Positions 1 to 62,919 of a stretch of 64,000 nt of DNA are shown here, in pieces. This DNA comes from an uncultured virus (IMG/VR IMGVR_UViG_3300010233_000006) (lineage: Duplodnaviria > Heunggongvirae > Uroviricota > Caudoviricetes): IMG/VR virus record IMGVR_UViG_3300010233_000006; one strand, written 5' to 3'. Position numbers and translations under genes: made by a program. A model generated the notes under the pieces. That model saw only the letters and a program-made list of their open reading frames with translations. It was not told the origin of the DNA and made no database searches. Every line of letters begins with the position of its first letter. The first letter of the stretch is position 1.

Positions 1-94
1 CAGCCGCCTGAGAAACAGGAACCGTTCTACGCGCTGTGCTGTTGCTTAGCATTGGTGTGTAGAATCCCCCGGCTTAAGCCGTGGGGAGTATCAA
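1..94 (+). mobile_element. IS200/IS605-family right end / omegaRNA scaffold, copy 1 (cut by window edge)
   Basis: Matches 49964-50057 (3' end of tnpB plus subterminal hairpin CCCCCGGCTTAAGCCGTGGGG and terminal TCAA) except one substitution (ATTGGTGTGT vs ATTGGAGTGT). Confidence 0.9.
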
Positions 95-558
95 TTTGAT
101 GTTCCTTCCCATTCCCATAGGCCGCGAGCGCCCTTAGCCGGCACGGGCGAAGCCAGTTGGATCACGTTCTCCAGAAGGAAGCCAAAGCGCCCCGGCTCAT
201 AATCGCCGAAGGCTTCCTCTTGCTCGCTGAACGGCAGCACATAGCGGCGGATCAGGCTCGTCTCCATGCAGTTGACCAGCGTCGCGGTCGCCAGCACGCA
301 GCCGACAGGAAGCGCCTTGATATGGAGTGCATTGTCGTCTAGCCATTCTTGCGTCAGAGAGGCTGGACATTCAGGCCATCCGAGAACGCGACAGACCAAG
401 CGCGATGTGCAGAAATCCTTAGCGGCAGAAGGGAAGGTCTTCGCAGCATGGATCGAGATTTGTCCACGAAAGGATGTGGGCCAACTTCGGGTTTCGATTC
501 GCTTGGCGCCTATCGCAACGAGCGTTGCCCAAGGCTGAGTTAACGTGATACTCTTCAT
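91..558 (-). CDS. ASCH domain protein
   Basis: MKSITLTQPWATLVAIGAKRIETRSW and KGARGLWEW are ASCH-type motifs; the real start is inside the longer listed ORF; the stop TGA overlaps the IS right-end TCAA. Confidence 0.85.
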   Translation of the reverse strand: MKSITLTQPWATLVAIGAKRIETRSWPTSFRGQISIHAAKTFPSAAKDFCTSRLVCRVLGWPECPASLTQEWLDDNALHIKALPVGCVLATATLVNCMETSLIRRYVLPFSEQEEAFGDYEPGRFGFLLENVIQLASPVPAKGARGLWEWEGTSN

Positions 559-833
559 GATTTTAGGCCCTCCGCTTTGGCAATGGCGGCCCGCAGCAGA
601 AACATTTCCTGCAGGAGCACCATCCTGTTTGTGCATTTCGTCCTCGGTCCACCAGCGCTCGACTTCCTTGCCGGCATCGAGAAGATCACCGAGTGGCGGC
701 ATCTGATCATAACCACTGTGGTCCTCCATGCATCCTGGATCAGTGGTGGCAGTTCTTCCCAGGGCAGAGGGGTCCGATTGCCGGCTGCCTGGCAGAAGAT
801 TTCGTAAGCTTCGCGGGCAACTTGGTCGATCAT
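555..833 (-). CDS. hypothetical phage protein
   Basis: ORF coupled by ATGA overlaps to both neighbours. Confidence 0.6.
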   Translation of the reverse strand: MIDQVAREAYEIFCQAAGNRTPLPWEELPPLIQDAWRTTVVMIRCRHSVIFSMPARKSSAGGPRTKCTNRMVLLQEMFLLRAAIAKAEGLKS

Positions 834-30131: not shown

Positions 30132-30590
30132 TCACGGCTGTTTCGGCTTCTCTGGATCTTGGCAGTCCGCAGTCATCCGGTCAAACGCCTTGGGTGCCAC
30201 ACAGCGCTTTGCGAGATCCGTGAACATCTGCTGCATGGCCGTGGTCTTGGGACCCAGTTCGACGGCCGATTTTGTCTCGATGTCTGTGAGCTTCGTTTTC
30301 AGCGCCAGCATTTGGCTACCGAGATCCGCCAGCTCTGTCTTCGGACCCATCATCTGGCTTGCCCACTTGTTCTGGAGTTCCAGATATTCCGTGTAGGCGC
30401 GGTGGAAGGCGTCTTTTTCGGCTTGGGTGATGGAAGACGGGTTGGGTGCAGTCTCCTTGGCAGACGCGGGCGTGGCAGCTTTGGTGGCGGCGACGACGGG
30501 AGCGGGTGCGTGATCCTGGGCTGGTAGCCAAAGATCCATTGCGAGGACCACGATGGCGAAGCCGATGACGAAACGGTGTGAAGTGTTCAT
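30132..30590 (-). CDS. signal-peptide coiled-coil protein
   Basis: MNTSHRFVIGFAIVVLAMDLWLPA|Q; the start ATGA is the left flank of the mini-element. Confidence 0.65.
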   Translation of the reverse strand: MNTSHRFVIGFAIVVLAMDLWLPAQDHAPAPVVAATKAATPASAKETAPNPSSITQAEKDAFHRAYTEYLELQNKWASQMMGPKTELADLGSQMLALKTKLTDIETKSAVELGPKTTAMQQMFTDLAKRCVAPKAFDRMTADCQDPEKPKQP

Positions 30591-30773
30591 TAGTTTCAGC
30601 TTACTTCCTTTTCTTGCTTTTGTCCGCACAGGGCACGTGGAGGCAGCATCAGACCCGAGCCGGTCCAAACCGGCAAGGGCAGCCGCCTGAGAAACAGGAA
30701 CCGTTCTACGCGCTGTGCTGTTGCTTAGCATTGGAGTGTAGAATCCCCCGGCTTAAGCCGTGGGGAGTATCAA
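30591..30773 (+). mobile_element. TnpB-less IS200/IS605 mini-element or remnant carrying omegaRNA scaffold and right end (copy 2)
   Basis: 30637-30773 matches 49921-50057; removing 30591-30773 restores GGAGG-CATACT-ATG for the downstream gene. Confidence 0.8.
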
Positions 30774-30799
30774 AGTATGCCTCCAGAAGGGTTGGACTT

Positions 30800-31552
30800 T
30801 CACGATAAGATGCTCCGCAACGTCCAGAAATCCCCTGATAAGTCGGCACTCAATAGATAGGCGTAGGGCATCCAGAAATAGCCGCTCAGCCCCCATCCTG
30901 CTCCCCATGAATTCCGACACCAGAACTGTTGACGCTTCTCGTTGTAGCCGATGCACAACACCGCATGGCCACCGAGCATTGATTCGGACGCGGATGGCAT
31001 CGGAACCACACCGGTCTTCGCCACCGCATTTGACTCAAACGAATCGTAGACCGAGAATCCGAAGACGAAGGGGAAGCGCTGCGCCAGACAGCCACGCATC
31101 GAATTGAGGTCCTGTCCGACTGCCCAATAGGAAACGCCTTTGTGCGCTAGGCCGGCAGCATAGGCCTGTGGAGATGGCTTCACCGCGAAGCGGCCGGTAT
31201 CGTATGGCCACAATACTTCCGAACAAGCGCCATAATCAGCCATCGCCTTCATACAATCCCGAAGAGTGGCGCCCGAATCGGACGGGACCGTCCCCTCGAT
31301 CACCCGTTCGTTGTAGTAAATGAACAAGCGGGACGGTTCGACTTGTGGCAATTTCTGCCGGAATTGATCGAATGCAATTGCTCCGGCCCCGGCGTTGGCC
31401 GTGCAAGATCCCAATTGTTCCTGATCGTAGATCGGCGGCAGCCCGCTGCGCAGATCCACATAAGACGGAAACCTTGTGGGGGCCAAAGACTGGAAACGCC
31501 AATCACGCTGATCGGGAAGTTGACGTTTCCAGCCGTATCTCTGCATTGGCAT
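30800..31552 (-). CDS. papain-like cysteine peptidase (C1A)
   Basis: QEQLGSCTANA (Cys), GGHAV (His), RNSWG (Asn). Confidence 0.92.
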   Translation of the reverse strand: MPMQRYGWKRQLPDQRDWRFQSLAPTRFPSYVDLRSGLPPIYDQEQLGSCTANAGAGAIAFDQFRQKLPQVEPSRLFIYYNERVIEGTVPSDSGATLRDCMKAMADYGACSEVLWPYDTGRFAVKPSPQAYAAGLAHKGVSYWAVGQDLNSMRGCLAQRFPFVFGFSVYDSFESNAVAKTGVVPMPSASESMLGGHAVLCIGYNEKRQQFWCRNSWGAGWGLSGYFWMPYAYLLSADLSGDFWTLRSILS

Positions 31553-45492: not shown

Positions 45493-48414
45493 TTACCGAT
45501 GTCCCGCGCTGCTACCGCGCCGAAGCCGATCGGCGCTCACCCGGACTGATGTTCCCACTGCGTTATCGTGCGCCGAAATGATTGCTGTTCTCACTCGCTG
45601 CTCCGTCAACAGTGGATCGGTTCCTCGGGCGTCAATGTTGTAGAAATGATTTCCTCCACCACCTCCGACCGCGCGGCGGGATTCTGCATTGCTCAACACG
45701 GTTCCCGAACTGCGTAAAAGAATCTCGGGCCCTTGCTCTCCCACCCAATAGGCGCCCGCCGGAGAAGTACCGCCGCCCCCGGCATGTTTCTGCAAGGATG
45801 CGCCGGCTAAGCTACCGAAGAGTGCCCCGAGAAAGGAACCGGATCCGCCGTTAGAACCGGAAGGTGCCGCTGGAGCCCCCGTGGCGATGGCGACCACATA
45901 GAACGGATTACCAGAGCTTCCATCCGGCCCCGTAGCCGTAGAGCCGGGAACAGGAATGCGCCCCAATCCCAATGGTCCGCCGGAACCGGGATTGCCGCTA
46001 GGAATTGCCGTACCGGTAGCCGTCGCGATCCGCACCCACAGAGCACTAGTAGCGCTACTTCCGTCTGGCTTGCCAGTCAGTCCGAAGTGCTTGCCGATGG
46101 CACCCAGACCGGACTGGATACCGGCCTTGAACACATTCTTCAGCGCCTCTTCTCCGATTGATTGAAACATCTTCCCGAAGCTGGTTTTCTGCCGCGTTAC
46201 AAACTTCGCGAATTCATCCGATGCCTTATCGATTGAAGAGGTCAGGGATTCGTAGATGATATCGGCCGCGGACTTCACTTGCTTCTGCATTTCGATGAAG
46301 AATGCACGGACACCGTCGATAGCGCGGCGGTGCGCCAGTGATTCCTCTACCAGAATCTTGAGGTATTCCTGCTCAATCCGCTGTTTCGAGAGTGCCCATT
46401 CGAAGGTGCTTTTTTCCGCGAGACTCATCCGTTCCATCTCGGCGGCTTCAAGCGAAAGGGTCTCTTTCTGCGTTTTATACTCCTGCCCACGCTTTAGTGC
46501 CGCTGCCCGGACTTCCTCTTCGTGCCGGAGTTCATCCTCCAGTCGCGTCCGCTGGATTTCTGCCTCTTTCCCCCCCCCAAGCCGCATCTGCTCGTACTTA
46601 GCTTCCAGTTGCGCCTTGCGGACTGCCTCGGCGCCATTTACCTGTGCTGCGATGATGCGGTTGATCCCCGCAATCTGCTGATCGATCTTTGCGATTCCCT
46701 GAGCGTCCTGGAGTTCCTTGGAGGCTCGAAATTGGTCTTTTAGCGCTGCGATTTCCTTCGGTTGCGCGCCGTCTTTAATCTTCCGCTGGAGTTCGAACTG
46801 GAAGGTTTGGAGGCGAATGGCCTCAGCGCCTTCCATCTGGATTTTGGCCAGAATCCGCTCCAATTCGATCTGATCTCCGAGGGCATCCGCCTTCTTGTTG
46901 GAATCGGTGAGGTTCTTGGCATCATACTCAACTTCCAGCCGGCGCCGGAGTAGGGCGTTCTGGGCGGCTTTGGTCTGATCGTTGTAGGCTTCGACCCCTA
47001 CTCTGCTCATCAATTCGATTTCCACGTTCGCTGCCTTCAGCGCGGTATAGCCTTCGCCGATGGCGGCCGTCAGCAACTGCTGGCCTTTCATCTGGTCGTT
47101 GATCTTCTTGGTGGCCTCGTCTAATTTGGTATTCCATGTGGTTTGGGATTCCGTCTCGGCAGTCTTGAGGACCACCGCTTGAATCGAATCCTTTTGGGCT
47201 GCGGTCAACTGGACGTGCTGCTTCTCCAGGGACTTATTTACCTCCTCGATGATTTTCAAGGCTTCCCCGGAAGCTTTCGCCTGGACCTGAAATGCCTCAT
47301 CCTTGCCGACGACTGCCAGCTTTAGTCGAGAAGCCTCCAGATTTGCTTGCAGCGCTTTCATTCGCTCTTCGAAGGGACGGCTGAGCAATTCATTCGCCCG
47401 CTCTGTTTCCAGGGCCTCCTTGCGCTCAGTCAGGCCAGTGTTCGTGGCCTGCAACCCTACTGCGCGGATTTGCTCCTGGAGGGCGCGTTGCGCACCCTTC
47501 AACTCCTCGATACGGGCTGCTTCGTTCTTGGCGAAATCCACCGTGGTGGCCATCGGAACGAATCCCCCGCCCTTATATCTCACGGGCTTTGGTGTGGCTA
47601 GCTTTTGGGCTTCCGCCAGTTTTTTGTTGATGATGACCAGTTCGACAGCATAACGCCTGGCCAGATTTGCATTCAGTTCCAACCGGGCGGCGTCGGCGTC
47701 CTTCAGATTGTGCGCCTGGTCAATACGCGCCTGTCCAGCACGGTTGATTTCGGCGATGTCTCCGGCCAGTCCGCCGAAGCCGGTCTTGCCACCGAATTCT
47801 TCCTTGATATCCTTGGTCCCGGCCTCCCCGAAGAACTGCCGCATGGCCCCGACGTTCTGTTCGGTGAGGATCTTGTTGAGTTGAGAAAGATCTTTGTTCA
47901 GGGAATCTGCCAACTTGTCGGCCGCCACGCGAGCCTCATCCAGAGCGATTTTTAGAGTATTCTGGCGACGACCTTCCAACTTGGCGATTTCGTTGGACAG
48001 CCGGTCATTCGCCAATTGCAATTCATCGTTGCTCAACTTCATCGGGGCCGTCAGTTCCCGAAAGGCTCCTTTGATCTTTTCCGGGGCTTGGGCGATAGAG
48101 TCGAAGAACTCTTTCACCTTTCCTCCCAATTCAAACAGCATCGTGCCGAAAGCGAGCCCCCCGACCAATGGAAAGGCTGCCTGGAGAACGGGGCCAAGTC
48201 CCAGGCTAGTGGATAGAAACCGCGCGATCGCCCTATTATTGTTGGCGAAATTTCCCTCAAGCTCGCGGAGCGCCGCGCTACTCGCGATCATGCTCTGCTT
48301 GGAGGATTGGCCAAACTGTCCGATCTTGGCACGGGCAGAGTCCATATCTGCTATGAACTGGGCCGTTCCAGCGTTTAAATTGATGCTGATTACTGCAACT
48401 TTTCGCGCAGCCAT
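45493..48414 (-). CDS. tape measure protein
   Basis: 973-aa helical protein; C-terminal HAGGG...YWVGEQGPE motif. Confidence 0.9.
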   Translation of the reverse strand: MAARKVAVISINLNAGTAQFIADMDSARAKIGQFGQSSKQSMIASSAALRELEGNFANNNRAIARFLSTSLGLGPVLQAAFPLVGGLAFGTMLFELGGKVKEFFDSIAQAPEKIKGAFRELTAPMKLSNDELQLANDRLSNEIAKLEGRRQNTLKIALDEARVAADKLADSLNKDLSQLNKILTEQNVGAMRQFFGEAGTKDIKEEFGGKTGFGGLAGDIAEINRAGQARIDQAHNLKDADAARLELNANLARRYAVELVIINKKLAEAQKLATPKPVRYKGGGFVPMATTVDFAKNEAARIEELKGAQRALQEQIRAVGLQATNTGLTERKEALETERANELLSRPFEERMKALQANLEASRLKLAVVGKDEAFQVQAKASGEALKIIEEVNKSLEKQHVQLTAAQKDSIQAVVLKTAETESQTTWNTKLDEATKKINDQMKGQQLLTAAIGEGYTALKAANVEIELMSRVGVEAYNDQTKAAQNALLRRRLEVEYDAKNLTDSNKKADALGDQIELERILAKIQMEGAEAIRLQTFQFELQRKIKDGAQPKEIAALKDQFRASKELQDAQGIAKIDQQIAGINRIIAAQVNGAEAVRKAQLEAKYEQMRLGGGKEAEIQRTRLEDELRHEEEVRAAALKRGQEYKTQKETLSLEAAEMERMSLAEKSTFEWALSKQRIEQEYLKILVEESLAHRRAIDGVRAFFIEMQKQVKSAADIIYESLTSSIDKASDEFAKFVTRQKTSFGKMFQSIGEEALKNVFKAGIQSGLGAIGKHFGLTGKPDGSSATSALWVRIATATGTAIPSGNPGSGGPLGLGRIPVPGSTATGPDGSSGNPFYVVAIATGAPAAPSGSNGGSGSFLGALFGSLAGASLQKHAGGGGTSPAGAYWVGEQGPEILLRSSGTVLSNAESRRAVGGGGGNHFYNIDARGTDPLLTEQRVRTAIISAHDNAVGTSVRVSADRLRRGSSAGHR

Positions 48415-48419
48415 TGGGC

Positions 48420-48779
48420 TTATGTAGATTCCTGATTAAGTGCGGACAGTTGCGCTCTGTACATTCTCATGACCGTCGTGGGGTATTTGATTCCTAGAAG
48501 AATCCCAATTTGCGCGAATGTGGTGCCCGATCCCCGCAACGCAATCACCCGTTCCCTAAGTGCCAGTTTTTCTGCCGTTAGTTTCGCCATCCTGATTTTG
48601 GCTATTACTGCTGCTGGTCGCGAGGTGCCCCTTAATTGCTCTGCCTGATTATGATGGGCTTCGCTGAGTCGTGTGCGCAGTTCGTATGAAGCTCGGCGCC
48701 GTGTCATTGCTGTCCTTTGGTTCTCAGGCATCGGCTTCCCTTTATTATGCGGTGGCCTTCCCTTCTTCCGCGCACTCAT
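48420..48779 (-). CDS. NUMOD3-type DNA-binding protein with C-terminal HTH
   Basis: PHNKGKPMPENQR, RTRLSEAH, IAKIRMAK; GTTFAQIGILLGI; no nuclease domain seen. Confidence 0.6.
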   Translation of the reverse strand: MSARKKGRPPHNKGKPMPENQRTAMTRRRASYELRTRLSEAHHNQAEQLRGTSRPAAVIAKIRMAKLTAEKLALRERVIALRGSGTTFAQIGILLGIKYPTTVMRMYRAQLSALNQEST

Positions 48780-50057
48780 TTTGCGTTTGGACCCAGTATT
48801 TACTGAGGTTTTAACGTATACTGGTATCGGATGGTGCGCGGCTTTCAATACCGCTTTTACCCTTCGCCAGAGCAGAAAACAGCACTGGCGAGAACCTTCG
48901 GTTGCGCTCGCTATGTCTACAACTGGGCGCTCAACCTGCGAAGTACAGCGTGGCGGGAGCGACAGGAGCGGACGAGCTACGGACAGACGTCGGCAGCCTT
49001 GACGGAGTTGAAGCGGCAACCCGAAGTCGGGTGGCTCAACGAGGTTAGTTGCGTGCCGGTGCAGCAGTCCCTTCGCCACCTGCAAACGGCGTTCGTCAAC
49101 TTCTGGCAGAACGGCGCCGCCTATCTCAACTTCAAGAAACGCGACAACCGCCAGTCCGCAGAGTACACGCGCTCCGGGTTTCAGTGGGATCGCGGACAGC
49201 TTACCCTGGCCAAGATCGGCAAGCTCAAGATCCGCTGGTCGCGCCGCTTCTCCGGTACGCCGACCACCGTAACGGTGAGTCGCACGCCTGCTGGCCGCTA
49301 CCACGTTTCGTTTCGGGTGGGCGAGCCGCTTCAGGTAATGCCGGAAACTACCGGACAGCTTGGTATCGATCTTGGCTTGACCGCGTTCGCCGCATTCTCG
49401 GATGGCAACAAGCATCAGTCCCCGCGTCCGTTGCGGCGCAAGATGGCGCAACTGAAGCGCGCGCAGAAGGCGCTGTCCAGAAAGAGGAAAGGCTCCGCCA
49501 ACCGGAGGAAGGCCCGGCAGCGCGTGGCCAAAGTGCACCAGAAGATTTCGGATATTCGCCGCGACGATTTGCACCAACTGACGTCCCGTCTCGTTCGTGA
49601 AAACCAAACGATCGCGATAGAGGACTTGAACGTGCGCGGCATGATGGCGAATCACACACTGGCCGGGGCGATCGGCGATTCCGGCTGGAGCGAATTCGCC
49701 CGGCAGTTGCAGTACAAATGCGAGTGGCATGGTCGCGTTTTGATCCGCATCGACAGGTTCTATCCGTCGAGCAAGACATGCTCGGCGTGCGGATTCAAGA
49801 ACGCGTCCATGCCGCTCGATGTTCGGGAGTGGCGATGTCCTTGGTGTGGCGTGGTCCATGATCGGGATGTGAACGCCGCAAAGAACATCCTGGCCGTCGG
49901 ATTGGCGGACAGTAACGCCTGTGGAGGCAGCATCAGACCCGAGCCGGTCCAAACCGGCAAGGGCAGCCGCCTGAGAAACAGGAACCGTTCTACGCGCTGT
50001 GCTGTTGCTTAGCATTGGAGTGTAGAATCCCCCGGCTTAAGCCGTGGGGAGTATCAA
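48780..50057 (+). mobile_element. IS200/IS605-family tnpB-only (IS1341-like) element
   Basis: Left flank TCAT; CCAGTAT...ATACTGG hairpin; tnpB; right-end hairpin plus TCAA; no tnpA. Confidence 0.85.
48831..50012 (+). CDS. tnpB: RNA-guided endonuclease TnpB, catalytic residues intact
   Basis: FGCARYVYN; RuvC GIDLG, IEDL, DRDVNAA; zinc finger CSACG/CPWCG. Confidence 0.96.
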   Translation: MVRGFQYRFYPSPEQKTALARTFGCARYVYNWALNLRSTAWRERQERTSYGQTSAALTELKRQPEVGWLNEVSCVPVQQSLRHLQTAFVNFWQNGAAYLNFKKRDNRQSAEYTRSGFQWDRGQLTLAKIGKLKIRWSRRFSGTPTTVTVSRTPAGRYHVSFRVGEPLQVMPETTGQLGIDLGLTAFAAFSDGNKHQSPRPLRRKMAQLKRAQKALSRKRKGSANRRKARQRVAKVHQKISDIRRDDLHQLTSRLVRENQTIAIEDLNVRGMMANHTLAGAIGDSGWSEFARQLQYKCEWHGRVLIRIDRFYPSSKTCSACGFKNASMPLDVREWRCPWCGVVHDRDVNAAKNILAVGLADSNACGGSIRPEPVQTGKGSRLRNRNRSTRCAVA

Positions 50058-50563
50058 CCCGGCAAAACGCCTTCACGCAGCGTTGCTTCTAAAGAAGCTG
50101 CAAACGCGGCGATTGCTTCGTCTCCATTGATATCTGCACAGGGCCTGAGGAACGGATATGCCGGAACATCTTTCACGTGTGTGCCCTTGCGCTTCCGTCC
50201 TCGATTGTCAATGTAATGTCCGCCCGGAACCACCATGCGATGCCCGCGCTCGACCCAGTTTGCGACGTGCCCCTGAAAGCCGCCATAACCAACTTCTGCC
50301 GTACCGCCGCGAAAATTGGCATCCAGTGTAACTTCCGAAATCAGAGCGCGCCGCAGATCGCCGGGATGCCGCTGGCCCTTCAGGGGTGCCGTATAGATAT
50401 CCGCTTGTCGCACGGGCGTGCGTGTCTGAAGATCTACATAAAAAACACCGATCCCGGCGCCCAATGCTTTCACATATCCCCGCGCAACAACGCTCTTCGG
50501 CGCTTCCGCGAGCATTCGCTGGACTTCCTCAATGCCCGTCACAGTTATCAGTTCGCCAGCCAT
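50054..50563 (-). CDS. HK97 gp10-like tail completion protein
   Basis: TPV...GDLRRAL, WVERGH, PAYPFLRP. Confidence 0.85.
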   Translation of the reverse strand: MAGELITVTGIEEVQRMLAEAPKSVVARGYVKALGAGIGVFYVDLQTRTPVRQADIYTAPLKGQRHPGDLRRALISEVTLDANFRGGTAEVGYGGFQGHVANWVERGHRMVVPGGHYIDNRGRKRKGTHVKDVPAYPFLRPCADINGDEAIAAFAASLEATLREGVLPG

Positions 50564-53149: not shown

Positions 53150-53824
53150 CTAAGCGTGAAGCGCCCGCACTCGCGCCATCGAATCCTGACAACTCTGCTC
53201 CCGCTGTTCCGCACTCATAACTCGTAGGAAGCTGGAAGAATAAGCGCGCTCGCCAAAGCCATGGTAGACTTTTGCGAGTGGCGTCACGGCCAACTTGAAC
53301 CCGGCCCGTTGCGCCCGCGCACACCAGTCCTCATCCTCGCCGCCGTAGCCCGTGAATTCCTCATTGAGGCGGCCCACCACGTTCAGGGCATGCCGCGGCA
53401 GGTAAACGCACACGAATGGGACGTAAGCCTTGCTTTCCACCCATTCCACATCGCCAAGATTCGTGGAACCTCGCGCCAGCAGGTTATTGATGCCATCCCC
53501 TAAAATCTGGGGGGAAAGCAGGCCAATCGAGGGATTCTGGCGGCAGATCCGGGACAGCGTGTCGAGCATGGGCGCCGCGAACTGAACGTCATCATTGGTC
53601 AGGAGCACATCCTCCGGCCAGGCTCCCATCATTCCGAGATTGGCATTACGGGCGAAGCAGAATGGCTCCGGGCCGGCGAAGTGCCGCCATTGTGGATCGA
53701 CCTTGGCCCCGCCGCTGGTGACGGCCAGCTTTTGGAAGCACAGGGGCTCGTGGATATTGACGGACGCGGCCAGTGCGGCAAAGATTTCAGGGAAGCGGGT
53801 AAGCGTTACGATGGCTACGGACAA
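53150..53824 (-). CDS. glycosyltransferase family 2
   Basis: FARNANLG, LLTNDDV, YGGEDEDWCARA; start approximate. Confidence 0.85.
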   Translation of the reverse strand: MSVAIVTLTRFPEIFAALAASVNIHEPLCFQKLAVTSGGAKVDPQWRHFAGPEPFCFARNANLGMMGAWPEDVLLTNDDVQFAAPMLDTLSRICRQNPSIGLLSPQILGDGINNLLARGSTNLGDVEWVESKAYVPFVCVYLPRHALNVVGRLNEEFTGYGGEDEDWCARAQRAGFKLAVTPLAKVYHGFGERAYSSSFLRVMSAEQREQSCQDSMARVRALHA

Positions 53825-53826
53825 GT

Positions 53827-54096
53827 CTATTTCCCTCTGGCGGACAGGACACCATTGACCAGCTTCATTCTGTTGATCGTCCGGATGGCTTGGTGATTCA
53901 CGCCCTTCGAGGACGGCACGCACTCCGAAAGTTCAACCCGAGCCACGGCGAATCTGCGATTTGGCTTACCCAGATGCATGGTTTGGATCAGATAAGCGGC
54001 CTGGGTCGCGCCTTCGGATGAATCGTGAGATCCATCGATCAGCGTGGGGTTGTCGTATTGATCGAGTTCGGCAAGCCAATATTGCGGAGATCTCAT
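53827..54096 (-). CDS. hypothetical protein
   Basis: ATGA-coupled ORF. Confidence 0.5.
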   Translation of the reverse strand: MRSPQYWLAELDQYDNPTLIDGSHDSSEGATQAAYLIQTMHLGKPNRRFAVARVELSECVPSSKGVNHQAIRTINRMKLVNGVLSARGK

Positions 54097-54419
54097 GCAG
54101 TCCTGAAACTCGGATTGGATTGACGCCATTCTTCCCAACTCGGATCGGTAGCTTTGTGATGCAACCATTCGGGAAGATCTGGCTTCGGTTTGAACGGCGG
54201 GCGACCGTGGATACAGGGAGAGCAACGAACTCCGTCTATCCGGTGCTTTTCGCAGAAGTAGAGTCCGCATCCGCGATCGCCGCCATACGGCTCCAGGCCG
54301 CAGACATAAGCCAGCCCACGGATAATTCGCTCATTGCACTTCGGATGGTCACAGATCGCTGGCACGCCGTAGCCGATATCGCGATCCCACTTGGTATCGT
54401 AACCGATGCTCCAGCCCAA
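54093..54419 (-). CDS. conserved phage Cys-rich protein
   Basis: MGWSIGYD...RDIGYGVPAICDHPKC. Confidence 0.65.
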   Translation of the reverse strand: MGWSIGYDTKWDRDIGYGVPAICDHPKCNERIIRGLAYVCGLEPYGGDRGCGLYFCEKHRIDGVRCSPCIHGRPPFKPKPDLPEWLHHKATDPSWEEWRQSNPSFRTA

Positions 54420-54427
54420 TTTAATTC

Positions 54428-54781
54428 CTATGCCTCACGCGGTCGTCCGGCGGCGCGTAAAGCCCGGTATCCGATTGGATCTTGCGCGGATCGACGCTTT
54501 TCAATACCACGCAGTATTTCCGCTGCCATGTCTTCGTCGGTCGGCCACTTTTCAGATCCAGGAGCCTTGCGAGCAATGTCCAGCGCGGCAGCAACCCAGT
54601 CAAAAGCGGCACGCATCGATGCCTGTAACCCACCGACCCCGCCGTCAACTAGAGATTGCGCAACTTCTCCAACTCCAGCCGATCCGTATCGTTTCTTCGC
54701 GTCTTCCACCTGAATCTGGGCTGCACGCTCACAAATGAGTCGCTTTACGTTGGGGCCGATAAGGGTGGTCTTCGTTATCAT
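54428..54781 (-). CDS. hypothetical protein
   Basis: ATGA-coupled ORF. Confidence 0.5.
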   Translation of the reverse strand: MITKTTLIGPNVKRLICERAAQIQVEDAKKRYGSAGVGEVAQSLVDGGVGGLQASMRAAFDWVAAALDIARKAPGSEKWPTDEDMAAEILRGIEKRRSAQDPIGYRALRAAGRPREA

Positions 54782-55578
54782 GCCGGGATTGCCTCTCGAT
54801 CCACGCAGAGCAAATCCTTTGGATCCGAAATCAGGCTCTGCCCTTGCTTCAACCCATTGTACTGCTCGTGCCACCGCATTGCTTTTTCAGCCTGCGAGTA
54901 CCGCGGAAGCCGGTCGCGCCATAGCTTCCGTTCTCCCTGCTCCTGAGAGCGGATCGGGTAATGCTTCAGAACGAAAGGAACAGGAAATACCGAGCGGCCG
55001 GCGAAGAGCACCTGGTGGCCGCCATGGGTGTGAAGGTCCACTCGTTCCGATCCTTGAAACCACGTCTTCACATGCGGCAGGCCGGAGTCCAGAGCATCGA
55101 GCGTGTAATGGCGGAAGTATTTCTCGGGGTCGCCGTGATACCCGTTGTCGATGGGCTTGAAGGTCACAACCCGGTATTCCACGGCATTGAAGCCGTAGCA
55201 GCTGACGATTTGTAGAGCATCGGCCAACGTGACTCCGCGACCGCCATCCATTGAACCGTCTTTCCCGGGAGTCCGGCGGATTTCGTCCGCGTCGTGCAGG
55301 ATTACCCATCGCCCCTGATTGGCGAACGCCACTTCCTCGATCCGCATCAGGATGCCGGTCCAGTCATAGATCGGTAGGGGGCCGGACGGGGGCCACAATT
55401 CGATCTCCAAATCCCCTCTATCGTTCTGCCAGGAGCACTGCCGATAATATCCGATCAGTCCGTCCGTGCTCCAGTTGTCAATTAAATGAACTTGGCAGCC
55501 CTGTTCATGAAGATGAGAAATCGTCCAGGGCAGGACGTCCGCCTCGTTATAGACGGGTATGATTGCTAGGGGCTTCAT
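54778..55578 (-). CDS. glycosyltransferase family 2
   Basis: IIPVYNEAD, IDNWSTDG, LHDADE, LKHYPIRS. Confidence 0.88.
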   Translation of the reverse strand: MKPLAIIPVYNEADVLPWTISHLHEQGCQVHLIDNWSTDGLIGYYRQCSWQNDRGDLEIELWPPSGPLPIYDWTGILMRIEEVAFANQGRWVILHDADEIRRTPGKDGSMDGGRGVTLADALQIVSCYGFNAVEYRVVTFKPIDNGYHGDPEKYFRHYTLDALDSGLPHVKTWFQGSERVDLHTHGGHQVLFAGRSVFPVPFVLKHYPIRSQEQGERKLWRDRLPRYSQAEKAMRWHEQYNGLKQGQSLISDPKDLLCVDREAIPA

Positions 55579-55742
55579 TTGGGAGTGTCGGATTGACAAA
55601 TCGGTTGGGACTCCCCAAATCTCCTCTGGCAATAGGCGCATACGAAGCGCCGATCATCCCAGCATGTAGGGAAGGACTCCAAATCCCCAGCGTGCCCCAC
55701 AAGCCAGCAGAGCTTTCCACGAATCCAGAATATCGTCTTCAT
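55575..55742 (-). CDS. small DUF1660-like prophage protein
   Basis: KLCWLVGH...CAYC. Confidence 0.45.
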   Translation of the reverse strand: MKTIFWIRGKLCWLVGHAGDLESFPTCWDDRRFVCAYCQRRFGESQPICQSDTPK

Positions 55743-55814
55743 AACCGGCTCGCGCCATGGATCACCGCGATACACGGCTCCTTCTGAAAGGGGCGGATCT
55801 GGCTCCATTCGGTC

Positions 55815-56345
55815 TTCGCGCTAGGCTGCAAGCTAGGCAGACCCGCTCTGCAAAACGGCGGCTGAAGAAACTCGCCGGCAAAGAACGGCGCTTTGCCAAA
55901 CACGTCAACCATGTTATTTCTAAGCAGATCGTTGCCGTCGCAGAACGCACCGGGGCGCGGGATCGCCGTCGAGGAATTGACGGGGATACGCGGACGGATA
56001 AGGGCTACACGGCGGCAACGGGGAGTTCTGCACAGTTGGGCCTTCGCTCAGTTGCGGGCGTTCCTGGAATACAAGGCGAAGCGGGCGGGTGTCCGCCTGG
56101 TCGCCGTGGATCCCCGGAACAGCAGCCGGGAGTGTTCCGCTTGCGGACACACCGACAAACGCAACCGGCCCAACCAATCGACCTTCCGTTGCGCCGCCTG
56201 CGGTTTCGCGGCGCACGCGGATACCAACGCTGCCAGGGTGATCTCTGGCAGGGCCACTGTAAGCGGGCCGAACGTAGCAGGTTGTGCTGCAGGTTAGCAT
56301 GGCTTAGTTACAAAGCCGCCGGCTTCAGCCGCGCGGTTGCTTTAC
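55815..56345 (+). pseudogene. tnpB: 5'-truncated, frameshifted TnpB of a second lineage with right-end hairpin
   Basis: NHVISKQIV / IAVEELTGIR / SSRECSACG / FRCAACG / HADTNAA; frameshift near 55950; GCCGCCGGCTTCAGCCGCGCGGT hairpin. Confidence 0.85.
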
Positions 56346-56348
56346 CGG

Positions 56349-56636
56349 TTAGCAACTCTCGGTAAACGCCACCATGAACCTTCGCGCATAATCTGAAGGA
56401 TTCACGGCCTCTATTTCATCGATGTACAGCTTTGGGGTCCTTCCTTCGATCCATCGATCCAGCTCCTTTCCAGAAGCGACTATGCAAGCCCTCTGATTGA
56501 TGTCCTGATCATGCCGAAAAGCGGCTTTCATGGCGCAGATATTCGGAAAAACTAAGGTTGCGCCCAAATCCCGCTTGAATATCGCGATAAGTGCGGTCGT
56601 TTTGCCGGATCTTCGATCACCATAGATTTTCAACAT
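56349..56636 (-). CDS. short P-loop protein
   Basis: GDRRSGKTT and LYIDE. Confidence 0.5.
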   Translation of the reverse strand: MLKIYGDRRSGKTTALIAIFKRDLGATLVFPNICAMKAAFRHDQDINQRACIVASGKELDRWIEGRTPKLYIDEIEAVNPSDYARRFMVAFTESC

Positions 56637-56668
56637 TCTCAAAATCTTTCTACTGCGTTCGGGAACCT

Positions 56669-57364
56669 TCAGTATGACCGGCCCGCTCCGTGGATCACTG
56701 CGATACACGGCTCCTTCTGAAAGGGGCGGATCTGGCTCCATTCGGTCACGATGTCGAACTGCCGGCGGATCATCGCCCGGAATTCCTCTGGAGTAAAGTC
56801 GTGCTTATGGTGCGGGTTATCCTTGCAGGTAGGCACGACCGGGCTCGATACCACGATATGGCGGCTAAGCCTCGCCGTCCGCTCCAGGAACGCTTCTGGA
56901 TCTTCGAGGTGCTCCAGGACCTCAAAGGCCACTGTGCCCATGAATTCCTCCTGGGCCAGTGGATCGGAGGGTAGCACGAAGGTCGCGCACTGTTCTCTCC
57001 GTTCCCGAGCAATCGCCAGCGCCGCTTCAGAAGAATCCACCCCCACTACGGTATTGCGGGTGCCAGCCAGTATTTCCGAACCATAGCCTACCCCGCATCC
57101 GAAATCCAGGACTCGCGTCTCGATGAACACTCGCGAGGCGAAATCATACCGTTCCAGATGGGCATTCCGCTCCCAGCAATTGGGACAGAGGTCCACATCC
57201 AGCGCGCCGCCATCGGGTAACATCCATTCCAAGGTCGGGATATCGGGCACACAGATCAGCGGCCTTTCCCGGGGATGCCGGCGGGCATCGGACAACCCCT
57301 CAGCCGATTTCCATTGCGGTCGAAAAGGTCCCGAAACTGGCCCGAACACAAGACGGCCGATCAT
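56669..57364 (-). CDS. class I SAM-dependent methyltransferase
   Basis: VLDFGCGVGYG, FEVLEHL, NPHH. Confidence 0.9.
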   Translation of the reverse strand: MIGRLVFGPVSGPFRPQWKSAEGLSDARRHPRERPLICVPDIPTLEWMLPDGGALDVDLCPNCWERNAHLERYDFASRVFIETRVLDFGCGVGYGSEILAGTRNTVVGVDSSEAALAIARERREQCATFVLPSDPLAQEEFMGTVAFEVLEHLEDPEAFLERTARLSRHIVVSSPVVPTCKDNPHHKHDFTPEEFRAMIRRQFDIVTEWSQIRPFQKEPCIAVIHGAGRSY

Positions 57365-57819
57365 AGGGTACCTTGGACTGCACAACTTTCGGGAGATGCG
57401 GCGAGTTCACGTTCAGGAAGTCCATCCCGCAATCGTCCACCATAAACGCGGGTGAACAGCAAGATCTCTTTGCGCTCGTCATATTCCATGAATGTCCAAA
57501 TTGGACCAGGCAGCTGTATCTTCGAATAATCGGGCCACGGTGAAGGCGGCGGCGATTGCCAGGGCTTTAAATCCATGAGGGCATTGTCATATGCCTGAAT
57601 CGTTGCCTCGGATGGCTGCGGATTCAGCAGGTCGAAGGCTCGCAAATCCAAAGCTTCCAGCGCGTGTCGGATTACCCTGTATGTCCCTGCCCAAACACAC
57701 TCGAACCTGATCCAGTATCCGATACAAACTGACCATTCTGCAAAATGCGTCAGAGCCTTAGGTGCGCTGCCGACCACCCAATTCTTCACGCCGCAGGTGA
57801 GCAAAGATTCTTCTTTCAT
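57361..57819 (-). CDS. hypothetical protein
   Basis: ATGA-coupled at both ends. Confidence 0.55.
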   Translation of the reverse strand: MKEESLLTCGVKNWVVGSAPKALTHFAEWSVCIGYWIRFECVWAGTYRVIRHALEALDLRAFDLLNPQPSEATIQAYDNALMDLKPWQSPPPSPWPDYSKIQLPGPIWTFMEYDERKEILLFTRVYGGRLRDGLPERELAASPESCAVQGTL

Positions 57820-58493
57820 GCGGCACCCCACGCATATCCCGAAACGTCCGGGTTGGTGGCCAGTCGCATCCAAGGACCCTGCTCCGTCTTCCGCTCCGAA
57901 GTGTTTCCAGAATGGACCGTGGCCACGAGGAATTGCTCTCCGTTCACATTGGCCAGTTGATTCTCGGCGGCGGCCCGGTAGCCAAAACCTTCATCCTGTC
58001 CGATCTGTAAATGTTCAAACGGATGGGAAAGCCACCAGGACCGCAGAAAACAAAGCGAAGCGCCAAGCGCGATATTCACGCCACCAGGATACCGCCACCA
58101 GATGGAATTGTCAGTAAAGCAGCAGGTGTGGTATGCCGACACGGCCTTGCCGCTTCCGACTAGCCGTTCCACCTGGTCTGTTAGGCGCCCTGGTGCATAC
58201 CAGTCATCATCGTCCTGAATGGCGATTACTTCCGCGTCGATCAGGGAGCAGCCGAGGTTCCGCTTCTCTCCCATTGTCCGGGGCCGGGTATCGTTATCCA
58301 CGATGCACAGCGTAATGCGCGGATCGTCTGTGGGAACCAGGTCGCTCACGTCTTCCCCGTCCGCAAGGATCAGCAGGCGCTTGGCCGGATAGTCCTGCCA
58401 TTGGAAGCAGCGGATCGCCTTCGGGAGCCATTGGCGACGGTTCCGAGTGCAGCAGAGGCAGGTGACTGTTGGATAGATTTCAAGGCCGGGCAT
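57816..58493 (-). CDS. glycosyltransferase family 2
   Basis: QWQDYP, GEKRNLG, QDDDDWY. Confidence 0.85.
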   Translation of the reverse strand: MPGLEIYPTVTCLCCTRNRRQWLPKAIRCFQWQDYPAKRLLILADGEDVSDLVPTDDPRITLCIVDNDTRPRTMGEKRNLGCSLIDAEVIAIQDDDDWYAPGRLTDQVERLVGSGKAVSAYHTCCFTDNSIWWRYPGGVNIALGASLCFLRSWWLSHPFEHLQIGQDEGFGYRAAAENQLANVNGEQFLVATVHSGNTSERKTEQGPWMRLATNPDVSGYAWGAA

Positions 58494-58668: not shown

Positions 58669-59052
58669 TTACACATTCTCCTGCAGCCCAAGGCAGTTAA
58701 GCTCTAAAACTGCGTTCATTTCCATCACATTGGCCACGGATCGGATCAAGTAGGTACTGCCGTTGTCGCTGGCCACCCGCATGTCCGGTGTGATTCCCGG
58801 CTGATAGTACATCGTGACGATCAGGTAGAGCTCCGTAACGGTCAAACCTCCGCGGATCACTTCTGTGCCTGAAACGATGTCGATGGCCGCCATTGCTGTC
58901 GTAAAAGGATTCCAAACGGACTTCGGGCCGGCCGCATCGAAGTTCGGTGGGCTGGCTGGACCCTGTTTCTGGATCGTCACCAGGTGCCGAAGCTTCCCGA
59001 TGTCGATGATCGGGAACCCACCCACGATCTCATAGGACTGGCTTAGAGGCAT
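58669..59052 (-). CDS. head closure / head-tail adaptor
   Basis: GKLRHLVTIQ, SGTE, ITPDMRV, YLIRSV. Confidence 0.88.
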   Translation of the reverse strand: MPLSQSYEIVGGFPIIDIGKLRHLVTIQKQGPASPPNFDAAGPKSVWNPFTTAMAAIDIVSGTEVIRGGLTVTELYLIVTMYYQPGITPDMRVASDNGSTYLIRSVANVMEMNAVLELNCLGLQENV

Positions 59053-62097: not shown

Positions 62098-62919
62098 CTA
62101 TGCCGATGCTGCAGTCAACGTGACCGTGACGTGTTGATCTTGCACGAACTTGCGAGCCTCTTGTGGGGTGATTTTCGACCGCCTGCTCGTTGCTGAAAGA
62201 ATACGGATAGTCACCCCGCACCCGCAGTGTGGGCAAAACTTCCAGGTAGCCTGCATACCTGCCTTACACTGAGGACATTCTCTCCCGCTGGCGTTGACAC
62301 TCAGAGGCAACGTCAGGGCCTTTTCAATAGGCATACCCTTTCGCAATCGTGCTACGAGCACGTGAGAAGGAATCCCAATTTCAGCGGCCCATTCCCAGAC
62401 GAATTTACGCTCGCCTTCGAATTCTATTTGGCGGACATTGCGGCGGTTTCGCATCTGATCAGTGCGGCTGGCCCACCGACAGTTAGTTTTGGAATATGGG
62501 CCATCATTGTCGATCCGGTCAAGGCTGGTATTCGTTGGCCGTTCGCCCATGTCAGCAAGAAATCCCTCGAAATATTCCCAACCAGGGTCATAGGAGATGC
62601 CGCGTCCCCCGTAGTTCGCGTATGAATTGTTATTTGGGTTGGTACACCGGCTCCGCATTGCCGCCCATGCAGTATATGTTGGAGTTTTTCTTCCGCGACG
62701 TGCCCAGCCATGGCGCTTGCGACCTGGATGGTCTTCCTTCCAGCATCCGCATGATTTAACCGAACTACAGATCAAGGCACTTGTGGGAACCTCGGTTATT
62801 GCTCCGCAGGCGCACTTGCACCGCCATCGCCTCTTTCGTTTACGGCCAACACCGCAGATTGGCTCAATGGCTGTCAGGCGGCCGAACGTCTTACCAGTTA
62901 TGTCTATAGAACCTGGCAT
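62098..62919 (-). CDS. HNH homing-endonuclease-like protein
   Basis: DITGKTFGRLT, CKCACG, YGGRGI, SLDRIDNDGPYSKTNCRWA. Confidence 0.85.
   Translation of the reverse strand: MPGSIDITGKTFGRLTAIEPICGVGRKRKRRWRCKCACGAITEVPTSALICSSVKSCGCWKEDHPGRKRHGWARRGRKTPTYTAWAAMRSRCTNPNNNSYANYGGRGISYDPGWEYFEGFLADMGERPTNTSLDRIDNDGPYSKTNCRWASRTDQMRNRRNVRQIEFEGERKFVWEWAAEIGIPSHVLVARLRKGMPIEKALTLPLSVNASGRECPQCKAGMQATWKFCPHCGCGVTIRILSATSRRSKITPQEARKFVQDQHVTVTLTAASA

Follow-up and report, generated by a model that had tools for sequence, protein, structure and literature searches.

A TnpB-only element antisense in the tail operon of an uncultured phage, with a probable in-register swap of the upstream stop codon

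In the current report, we describe a TnpB-only element of the IS200/IS605 family (IS1341 type, ISDra2/GipA-like) at positions 48780-50057 of a 64,000-nucleotide stretch from an uncultured virus of the Caudoviricetes (IMG/VR record IMGVR_UViG_3300010233_000006); this whole stretch is called the window. The host of the element is an uncultured siphovirus-like phage, in whose tail operon the element lies antisense. The account that we favor, and consider probable, is that an (N)TCAT-type TnpB element entered antisense at the junction between a gp10-like tail gene and a 119-codon open reading frame (ORF) termed orf119, swapped the upstream stop codon in register, and later lost its left end. The parts of the junction are as follows (nt, nucleotides; TAM, target-adjacent motif).

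48420..48779, minus strand: orf119, 119 codons, its ATG being the complement of TCAT at 48776-48779
48776..48779, plus strand: left flank TCAT, the putative target and TAM, whose complement ATGA holds the orf119 ATG
48780..48830, plus strand: residual left end, 51 nt, without a subterminal hairpin, aligning with the last 51 nt before tnpB in the closest relative (locus L001)
48831..50012, plus strand: tnpB, 393 amino acids, antisense to the phage tail genes
49921..50057, plus strand: right end with the predicted omega-RNA scaffold (hairpin 50029-50049, terminal TCAA 50054-50057)
50058..50077, plus strand: flank in guide position, complementary to the 3'-terminal codons of the gp10-like gene
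50054..50563, minus strand: gp10-like gene (HK97 gp10/tail-completion-like; phrog_5, 2e-08)

The coordinates and codon arithmetic at 48776-50077, read directly, are those that a first-pass annotation made from the letters alone had given: TCAT provides the ATG of orf119, and the terminal TCAA provides the stop of the gp10-like gene. Specifically, the gp10-like ORF (50054-50563, minus strand) ends CCG GGT TGA, with its TGA formed by TCA at 50054-50056, and in silico removal of 48780-50057 reproduces the previously proposed CCG GGA TGA GT, a coupled ATGA overlap with a silent change in the Gly codon. Eleven gp10-like homologues were found, and the three nearest in sequence (63-78% identical) finish in ...GVLP or ...GVLT, compared with ...GVLPG in the window; the C-terminus thus lies at most one residue from the ends of its homologues, and the right end of the element therefore abuts a native C-terminus.

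According to the favored account, members of this subfamily would insert 3' of (N)TCAT and carry a right end that closes with TCAA, so that on the phage sense strand the target would read A+TGA and the right end T+TGA. Antisense insertion at a gene end would then swap the upstream stop in register; in the last codon the third base alone would change (here GGA to GGT, silent), and the next gene would keep its ATG. Where phage genes are densely packed, no other insertions would survive, and this would be why phage-borne relatives pile up at start codons and ATGA overlaps. The pattern is one of sequence compatibility and survivorship or selection, not of junction-seeking. The contrary suggestion of the first-pass annotation, that the element targets gene junctions, is not borne out: in seven relatives found by protein similarity (six cellular, one viral), TTCAT opens an ORF of at least 100 codons only once, the right-end TGA closes an ORF of at least 60 codons in none of six, and a native ATGA overlap is found at one of the 35 listed junctions of this phage. 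The cellular relatives are not at gene junctions.

Two further copies of the right end occur in the window and provide an internal comparison.

1..94, plus strand: copy 1, right end only in view, 94 nt, 98.9% identical; the rest lies left of the window
91..729, minus strand: ASCH-domain gene (Pfam ASCH), called product of 212 amino acids, with its stop inside the TCAA of copy 1
30132..30590, minus strand: 152-codon ORF, its ATG being the complement of TTCAT at 30586-30590
30591..30636, no strand: 46 nt between copy 2 and the next start codon
30637..30773, plus strand: copy 2, a solo omega-RNA scaffold and right end of 137 nt, 100% identical to 49921-50057
30800..31552, minus strand: papain-family peptidase gene (Peptidase_C1, 2.5e-13), ending 26 nt from the right end of copy 2

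The last bases of the element, ...GGGGAGTATCAA at 50057, are common to all three copies, and their likeness ceases exactly at 94, 30773 and 50057; because the copies diverge at the same point, the right boundary at 50057 is firm. The claim that copy 1 supplies the stop of the ASCH gene is confirmed, its TCAA at 91-94 forming the TGA of the open frame 91-900, so that both of the window ORFs that run into a right end (2/2) stop on its TGA. The ASCH domain is whole, and the protein ends five residues past the conserved LWEW motif, compared with 2-30 in its homologues; the closest homologue (82%) runs 28 residues longer, so that a tail of the ASCH protein may have been lost. Copy 2 begins at the conserved GTGGAG that opens the scaffold. 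Its reconstruction by the first-pass annotation to GGAGG-CATACT-ATGA is arithmetically right, and the pre-insertion junction would read ...GGAGGCATACT ATGAAC..., but 183 nt are removed to obtain it, of which only 137 are shown to be derived from the element; the intervening 30591-30636 resembles nothing else in the window, in the element or in any collected locus. The supporting argument from a Shine-Dalgarno sequence at copy 2 is weakened, as GGAGG is not found upstream of most genes in this phage. The bases to the right of copy 2 (30774-30790, AGTATGCCTCCAGAAG) resemble the start of a Gifsy-1-type left end (CAGAATGCCTCC) and have CCAGAAG in common with the left end of L001, a likeness that may be due to chance or may be a trace of a right-end/left-end joint. 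Copy 2 is like the palindrome-associated transposable elements (PATEs) and other solo right ends in being a right end without tnpB; it lacks the left-end hairpin and so is not a PATE, and it keeps exactly the omega-RNA scaffold.

The same exchange of stop codons can be followed in known phages through filled and empty sites. For example, the TnpB of the locus L047, which is prophage Gifsy-1 (99.2% to NC_010392), is GipA, flanked by GfoZ and GfoU. Gifsy-1 reads ...TCA CGT TGA[element]...CTG ATG AGC, and Fels-1 reads ...ACC CGA TGA ACA at the annotated 4-nt gpZ/gpU overlap, which is an empty ATGA site; the comparison therefore shows that the element, read along its top strand, begins exactly after TCAT, and that its TCAA renews the stop of Z. 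The GipA element (AF246666/NC_010392) resembles that of the window in being TnpB-only, in lying antisense in a tail/connector operon with a CTCAT left flank, in its TnpB (49% identical over the full length), in its right-end motif (GAATCCCC...GGGGAG..TCAA), and in that the right-end TGA ends the upstream gpZ homologue while ATGA begins the gpU homologue. It differs in its host and phage and in its complete left end with a hairpin, which is lost in the window copy. GipA has been recognized as a TnpB-like protein of an insertion sequence (Bao and Jurka 2013, PMC3627910).

Klebsiella phage RSU-F4K5 has the same layout between two connector genes. In mycobacteriophages, Jarcob (empty) reads ...GGA GGG TAA ATG GCT and Job42 (filled) reads ...GGA GGT TGA[element]...G TAA ATG GCT; here the flank is TTTAC, its complement is G+TAA, and the stop is swapped in the same register, so that this TTAC-type swap makes the rule wider than ATGA. 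The idea that the lost stop is replaced holds also in RSU-F4K5, in the viral locus L072 and in the mycobacteriophage pair, but its restriction to ATGA junctions does not. These Cheoctovirus elements (Job42 gp17 and relatives) are like the window element in TnpB (47% identical), in the right-end motif and in their antisense position, between the tape measure and minor tail genes, with the right-end TGA serving as the tape measure stop; they are unlike it in their target (TTTAC or CTCAC, complement G+TAA or G+TGA), in swapping at a stop rather than at an ATGA overlap, and in their intact left end, and one sense-oriented copy occurs at another site, in Jarcob. Across 42 Mycobacterium phage records, the TnpB element is found at three genome positions (approximately 13.1-13.4, 27.4 and 31.3-31.7 kb), which gives several natural filled/empty pairs.

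The prevalence of this layout was surveyed by scanning IMG/VR for the right-end motif, which matched more than 123 stretches, and 80 loci with 85 instances were examined. Among 72 unique right ends with enough upstream DNA, a full-length TnpB was found in 34, a partial one in 12 and none in 26. Nine full-length elements in viral contigs have a canonical left-end hairpin that could be placed (seven by script, and L072 and L108 by eye), and NTCAT stands 15-21 nt before the hairpin in all nine, with the flanks GCTCAT, GTTCAT and GGTCAT (twice each), AGTCAT, TGTCAT and GATCAT; four other viral elements (L055, L087, L112 and L118) have a TTTAT flank, and the remaining full-length ones, whose left end could not be placed, were excluded from the counts. 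CAT opens a minus-strand ORF of 111-316 codons in eight of the nine, compared with 19 of 103 other TCAT sites in the same loci. Of 78 unique viral right ends, 12 have an antisense frame of at least 100 codons that ends on the right-end TGA, compared with 6 and 2 for the other two frames. Several of these junctions lie between recognizable genes: in L047, the downstream gene is a tail terminator (PHROG residues 1-132 of 133) and the upstream tail completion protein matches to the end of its profile; the gene upstream in L072 is the large terminase subunit (PHROG); and the downstream genes of L108 and L044 match PHROG profiles from residue 2-3. By these profiles, the N- and C-termini at those junctions are native.

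L106, L107 and L108 are three identical 1386-nt TCAT-type copies within 12 kb of one 49.6-kb IMG/VR contig, and in each the left flank coincides with the start codon of an antisense ORF (111, 208 and at least 316 codons); their first left-end bases, CAGATTCCTCC, place GGAGG 6 nt before that ATG. CCTCC is present at the left end in five of the nine TCAT-type elements, and in Gifsy-1 the left end puts AGGAGG 7 nt ahead of the start codon of the downstream gene, gfoU. Some left ends may supply a ribosome-binding site to the downstream gene.

With regard to the target motif, the window copy has CTCAT on its left and no direct repeat around it, and the flanks left of the left end in 13 relatives are TTCAT in seven (L001, L003-L006, L016 and L026), TTCAC in one, TCTAT in three, and TTTAT and GTTAT in one each. 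The first-pass equation of the TAM with TCAT, which we retain as a sequence-based prediction, agrees with the TTCAT/NTCAT flanks of relatives and with the Fels-1/Gifsy-1 empty site, but some relatives at about 55% identity have other flanks. For the ISGst elements of Geobacillus stearothermophilus, Meers et al. (10.1101/2023.03.14.532601) describe a TAM identical to the motif on the left flank and a nuclease that retains the element by cutting the donor joint once it is empty; the TAM measured for IscB of ISGst5 is TTCAT, and that of TnpB2 of ISGst2 is TTTAT. Unlike the window element, the ISGst elements are chromosomal and autonomous, and the sections consulted draw no link between TAMs and start or stop codons.

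The protein encoded by the element is a TnpB. Its Pfam matches all pass the cut-offs (HTH_OrfB_IS605, 9e-19; OrfB_IS605, 2e-28; Cas12f1-like_TNB, 2e-26), it aligns over its full length with ISDra2 TnpB (PDB 8bf8; E 2e-81), and its GIDLG, IAIEDL, HDRDVNAAKNI, CSACG and CPWCG segments align with their ISDra2 counterparts. The aligned motifs hold the catalytic RuvC residues D, E and D and the CxxC...CxxC pair of TnpB; judged by sequence, the RuvC nuclease gene is intact. A nuclease-dead repressor of the TldR type was ruled out, since the RuvC motifs are present, the C-terminus is not truncated and the alignment is full-length. The likeness to ISDra2 TnpB (PDB 8bf8, 8ex9, 8exa and 8h1j) extends to the three domains with RuvC and zinc-finger motifs and to an omega-RNA (reRNA) encoded across the tnpB 3' end and the right end. 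ISDra2 carries tnpA and both hairpins and has the TAM TTGAT, whereas the window copy has a TCAT flank, no tnpA and no left hairpin.

The right-end motif consists of a subterminal hairpin, CCCCCGGCTTAAGCCGTGGGG, followed by AGTATCAA, and TCAA is kept in 12 relatives. Over these 12 relatives the omega-RNA region has a conserved fold, with compensatory changes at 15 of 24 RNAalifold pairs, and in a single-sequence fold the 137-nt scaffold forms three stem-loops (z -3.2); no Rfam family matched the region at the gathering score. We therefore predict that 49921-50057, spanning the tnpB 3' end and the right end, is the omega-RNA scaffold, as expected for the family, and the flank 50058-50077 would be its guide. 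The flank guides of the three copies have no other site in the window within two mismatches over 16 nt. A promoter scan gave one weak site. The exact 28-nt right-end pattern had no match in viral, genome or metagenome contigs; two soil-metagenome runs contain 5-7% of the sampled words, and the contigs built from them span parts of the tnpB interior but none of the junctions, so that they are uninformative about an empty site. Antisense to tnpB, an open frame of 531 codons (48420-50015, minus strand) continues in phase into orf119, and at copy 2 the ATG of the 152-codon ORF is likewise in phase with an open frame (30132-30731). Such a long antisense frame is probably a by-product of GC-rich codon use; the idea of an antisense ORF that bridges the element for translational coupling was rejected, as the frame that ends on the TGA of the ATGA is open through the element in only two of 15 relatives (L001 and L064).

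In the closest relative, L001 (TnpB 74% identical at the amino acid level, in an alphaproteobacterial metagenome-assembled genome (MAG) that holds one full copy only), the alignment covers window positions 48776-50054 and the element extends approximately 104 nt further left, in the order TTCAT, hairpin CCCCTGCCTTCAGGCATGGGG, ...AATGTTCAA, and then TTTGCGTTTG..., where the window copy begins. This hairpin is present in L001 and at least 10 relatives, with relatives at 52-55% built alike, and is found nowhere in the window. From this comparison, we read its absence as a secondary loss of approximately 100 nt. No Y1 transposase (TnpA) family was found among the 56 distinct ORF translations of the window; the element has room for tnpB only and is not an autonomous IS605/IS608-type element with its own Y1 TnpA. 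With the hairpin gone, 48780-50057 is not a complete transposable unit and cannot now be moved by TnpA; the window copy is probably immobile. It therefore cannot be excised in the way that the first-pass annotation supposed. The joint TCAT-TTTGCG would be the expected trace of a deletion from the flank TCAT to an internal TCA(A), by slippage on the short repeat or by an aberrant TnpA cut at a right-end-like cleavage site. A 53-nt fragment 87% identical to the L001 left-end hairpin region (L043, G001:C24:220262-220312) lies 2.5 kb from the full element on the same MAG contig as the L001 element.

In its functional part, the favored account would have the window copy fixed after losing approximately 100 nt of left end, including the hairpin needed by TnpA. 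TnpB and its omega-RNAs would then cut sibling genomes without the insert, with TCAT and the upstream gene's 3' end as the target site, and in a mixed infection recombination would copy the element in, or the competitor would be damaged. This proposal is made because enzymes of the TnpB family cut where a TAM and a guide match occur together, that is, at the allele without the insert, as described by Meers et al.

Several observations weigh against the favored account. The left boundary rests on a single copy: the CTCAT flank fits the family NTCAT but is not TTCAT and belongs to one, left-truncated, copy only, and TCA at 48776-48778, on sequence grounds, could equally match the internal TCA(A) of L001 and so be element rather than flank. 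Other flanks (TTTAT, TCTAT and GTTAT) also occur among relatives at about 55% identity. The downstream gene is doubtful: orf119 is the sole open frame in its stretch and its GC content is flat over the three codon positions, it has no PHROG match and no homologue, and at E<=1 Pfam gave only one irrelevant match (0.075). In relatives at 33-57% identity, found with an alignment-based query, the tape measure gene follows 1-3 nt after the gp10-like gene without orf119, and orf119 plus the element is therefore extra DNA relative to them; these relatives are too distant for comparing junction sequence, and the pre-insertion gp10-like/orf119 junction is hypothetical. An ATGA start is found in five of the 36 listed minus-strand genes of this phage. 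In the census, the nine elements are a selected subset of 34, with three copies in one contig and L047 and L051 representing one element type, and the frame test among them is clear only in L047 and L072 (ambiguous in L064 and L106-L108, with 70% GC flanks). Finally, we infer nuclease activity, omega-RNA expression and homing from computational analysis.

In a rival reading, the element is a truncated fragment at a chance junction, cut on its 5' side by an unrelated deletion or recombination, with TCA(T) internal, the orf119 ATG and the ATGA coincidental and the original target lost. Likeness to L001 does begin at 48776 (TCAT against TCAA), there is no left-end hairpin, relatives lack orf119, an ORFan whose GC content is flat across codon positions, and ATG followed by A occurs in five of 36 genes of this phage. 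However, the layout is a habit of the family in phages, with eight of nine at start codons and with filled/empty pairs; the right-end TGA stops the gp10-like gene no more than one residue from its native end, and copy 1 behaves alike; and a deletion that joined the flank TCAT to a TCAA/TCAT inside the element needs no coincidence. We regard this reading as unlikely. Survivorship with another true TAM (e.g., TTTAT or TCTAT), in which TCAT would be incidental to start codons because other insertions are lethal, draws on the variation of flank motifs within the family, on the TTTAT subfamily in viral contigs and on cellular relatives away from junctions. Yet the closest relative (74%) has TTCAT, TCAT stands at all nine viral elements counted with a placed left end, and the swap frame is fixed by the TCAT/TCAA geometry, the observed frame being the predicted one in the clear cases; we consider this very improbable.

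The element might also be a domesticated phage tool, an immobile TnpB with three omega-RNA ends that serves, for example, in RNA-guided repression or in attacks on competitors or host elements, a reading that overlaps the functional part of the favored explanation. The tnpB ORF is intact despite the loss of the left end, identity among the three right ends is 99-100%, what remains of copy 2 is exactly the scaffold, from GTGGAG on, and a second, unrelated TnpB remnant in the same phage points to repeated exposure. On the other hand, the RuvC motifs are intact, unlike those of TldR-type repressors, the guides match only their own flanks within the window, and the near-identity of the copies may simply reflect recent insertion, so that we give domestication a slim chance.

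As to the setting of the element, the window is phage DNA: most long minus-strand ORFs have phage-type family matches (Pfam, PHROG), and their products include a major tail protein, a tail terminator, tail completion proteins, a head completion protein, large fibre-like proteins and an HNH endonuclease. According to the records of these proteins, the source contig is 77,002 nt long. The gene that follows orf119 in the operon is the following.

45493..48414, minus strand: tape measure gene (Tape_meas_lam_C)

Residue 3 of the window tape measure protein aligns with residue 2 of its homologue in L038 (45% identity over 991 columns); the gene is intact and, by this alignment, its N-terminus is native. 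The flanks of the element have no DNA-level likeness to any GenBank phage, the matches being to the TnpB gene only. As a single query, the gp10-like protein had no match in viral contigs, and it was not found in 401 genomes of one phylum nor in the genomes of L001 and L014. An empty site of the kind called for by the first-pass annotation is available for a related element, GipA, in the ATGA site of Fels-1; the phage's own relatives (33-57%) have no orf119 and are too distant. The same annotation had labeled orf119 a NUMOD3 gene, a name without Pfam, PHROG or homologue support; orf119 is an ORFan and possibly a small helix-turn-helix protein, a weak lead from Atlas matches below 0.9. TCAT occurs at 425 sites in this phage on both strands, and most gene junctions are of the type TAA-N-ATG without a Shine-Dalgarno sequence.

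Elsewhere in the window, the HNH endonuclease gene (62098-62919, minus strand; phrog_374, 1.8e-61), another mobile-type nuclease, adjoins a gene for a 900-amino-acid fibre/adaptor-like protein. The head-completion gene (58669-59052) is separated from the tail genes by a block of genes for glycosyltransferases and methyltransferases (53150-58493), a position that is unusual for them in a siphovirus-type module. Within this block, the second TnpB remnant (55893-56297, plus strand) retains only the C-terminal TNB/zinc-ribbon part (Pfam 2e-23) and is followed by a right-end-like hairpin near 56316-56336. Direct repeats of 74 nt (55741-55814 and 56674-56747; 93% alike) enclose this remnant and an AAA_14-like ORF (56349-56741, minus strand), and the region 55741-56747 looks like an insertion with duplication of part of the methyltransferase gene 3' region.

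The element itself is unremarkable within its known family, of which gipA of Gifsy-1 is a long-known sibling member, and the stop-codon swap rule is, from the sequences compared, apparently general. No statement of the rule was found in the full-text literature searched, and the original Gifsy-1 gipA paper, which lay outside that search, may describe the junction concerned. TnpB genes are very abundant, yet little attention has gone to how they persist in phage genomes packed with genes; the rule accounts for their harmless presence inside essential operons, and it predicts acceptor sites in any phage together with what the guides will target. More tentatively, and as a view that we think possible rather than probable, the ends of this IS200/IS605 branch may be antisense stop-codon mimics that lead to RNA-guided homing at phage junctions, with the window copies a fixed, multi-guide, anti-sibling TnpB system. 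Targets of TCAT or TTAC and a right end of TCAA would each read as one base plus TGA or TAA on the host gene strand, entry would be scarless at the 3' edge of any phage gene, with some left ends bringing a ribosome-binding site, and the guide would automatically be the conserved 3' end of the upstream gene. A parallel is offered by the free-standing phage homing endonucleases and their "intronless homing", as treated in a review (PMC13565253): in principle, both systems wedge a nuclease gene between conserved phage genes and would cut the allele without the insert, whereas recognition in the window would use an RNA guide and a TAM, and the insert came by transposition. If TnpB does cut alleles without the insert, these elements would be RNA-guided counterparts of the free-standing phage homing endonucleases, an idea that can be approached with the existing filled and empty mycobacteriophage pairs.

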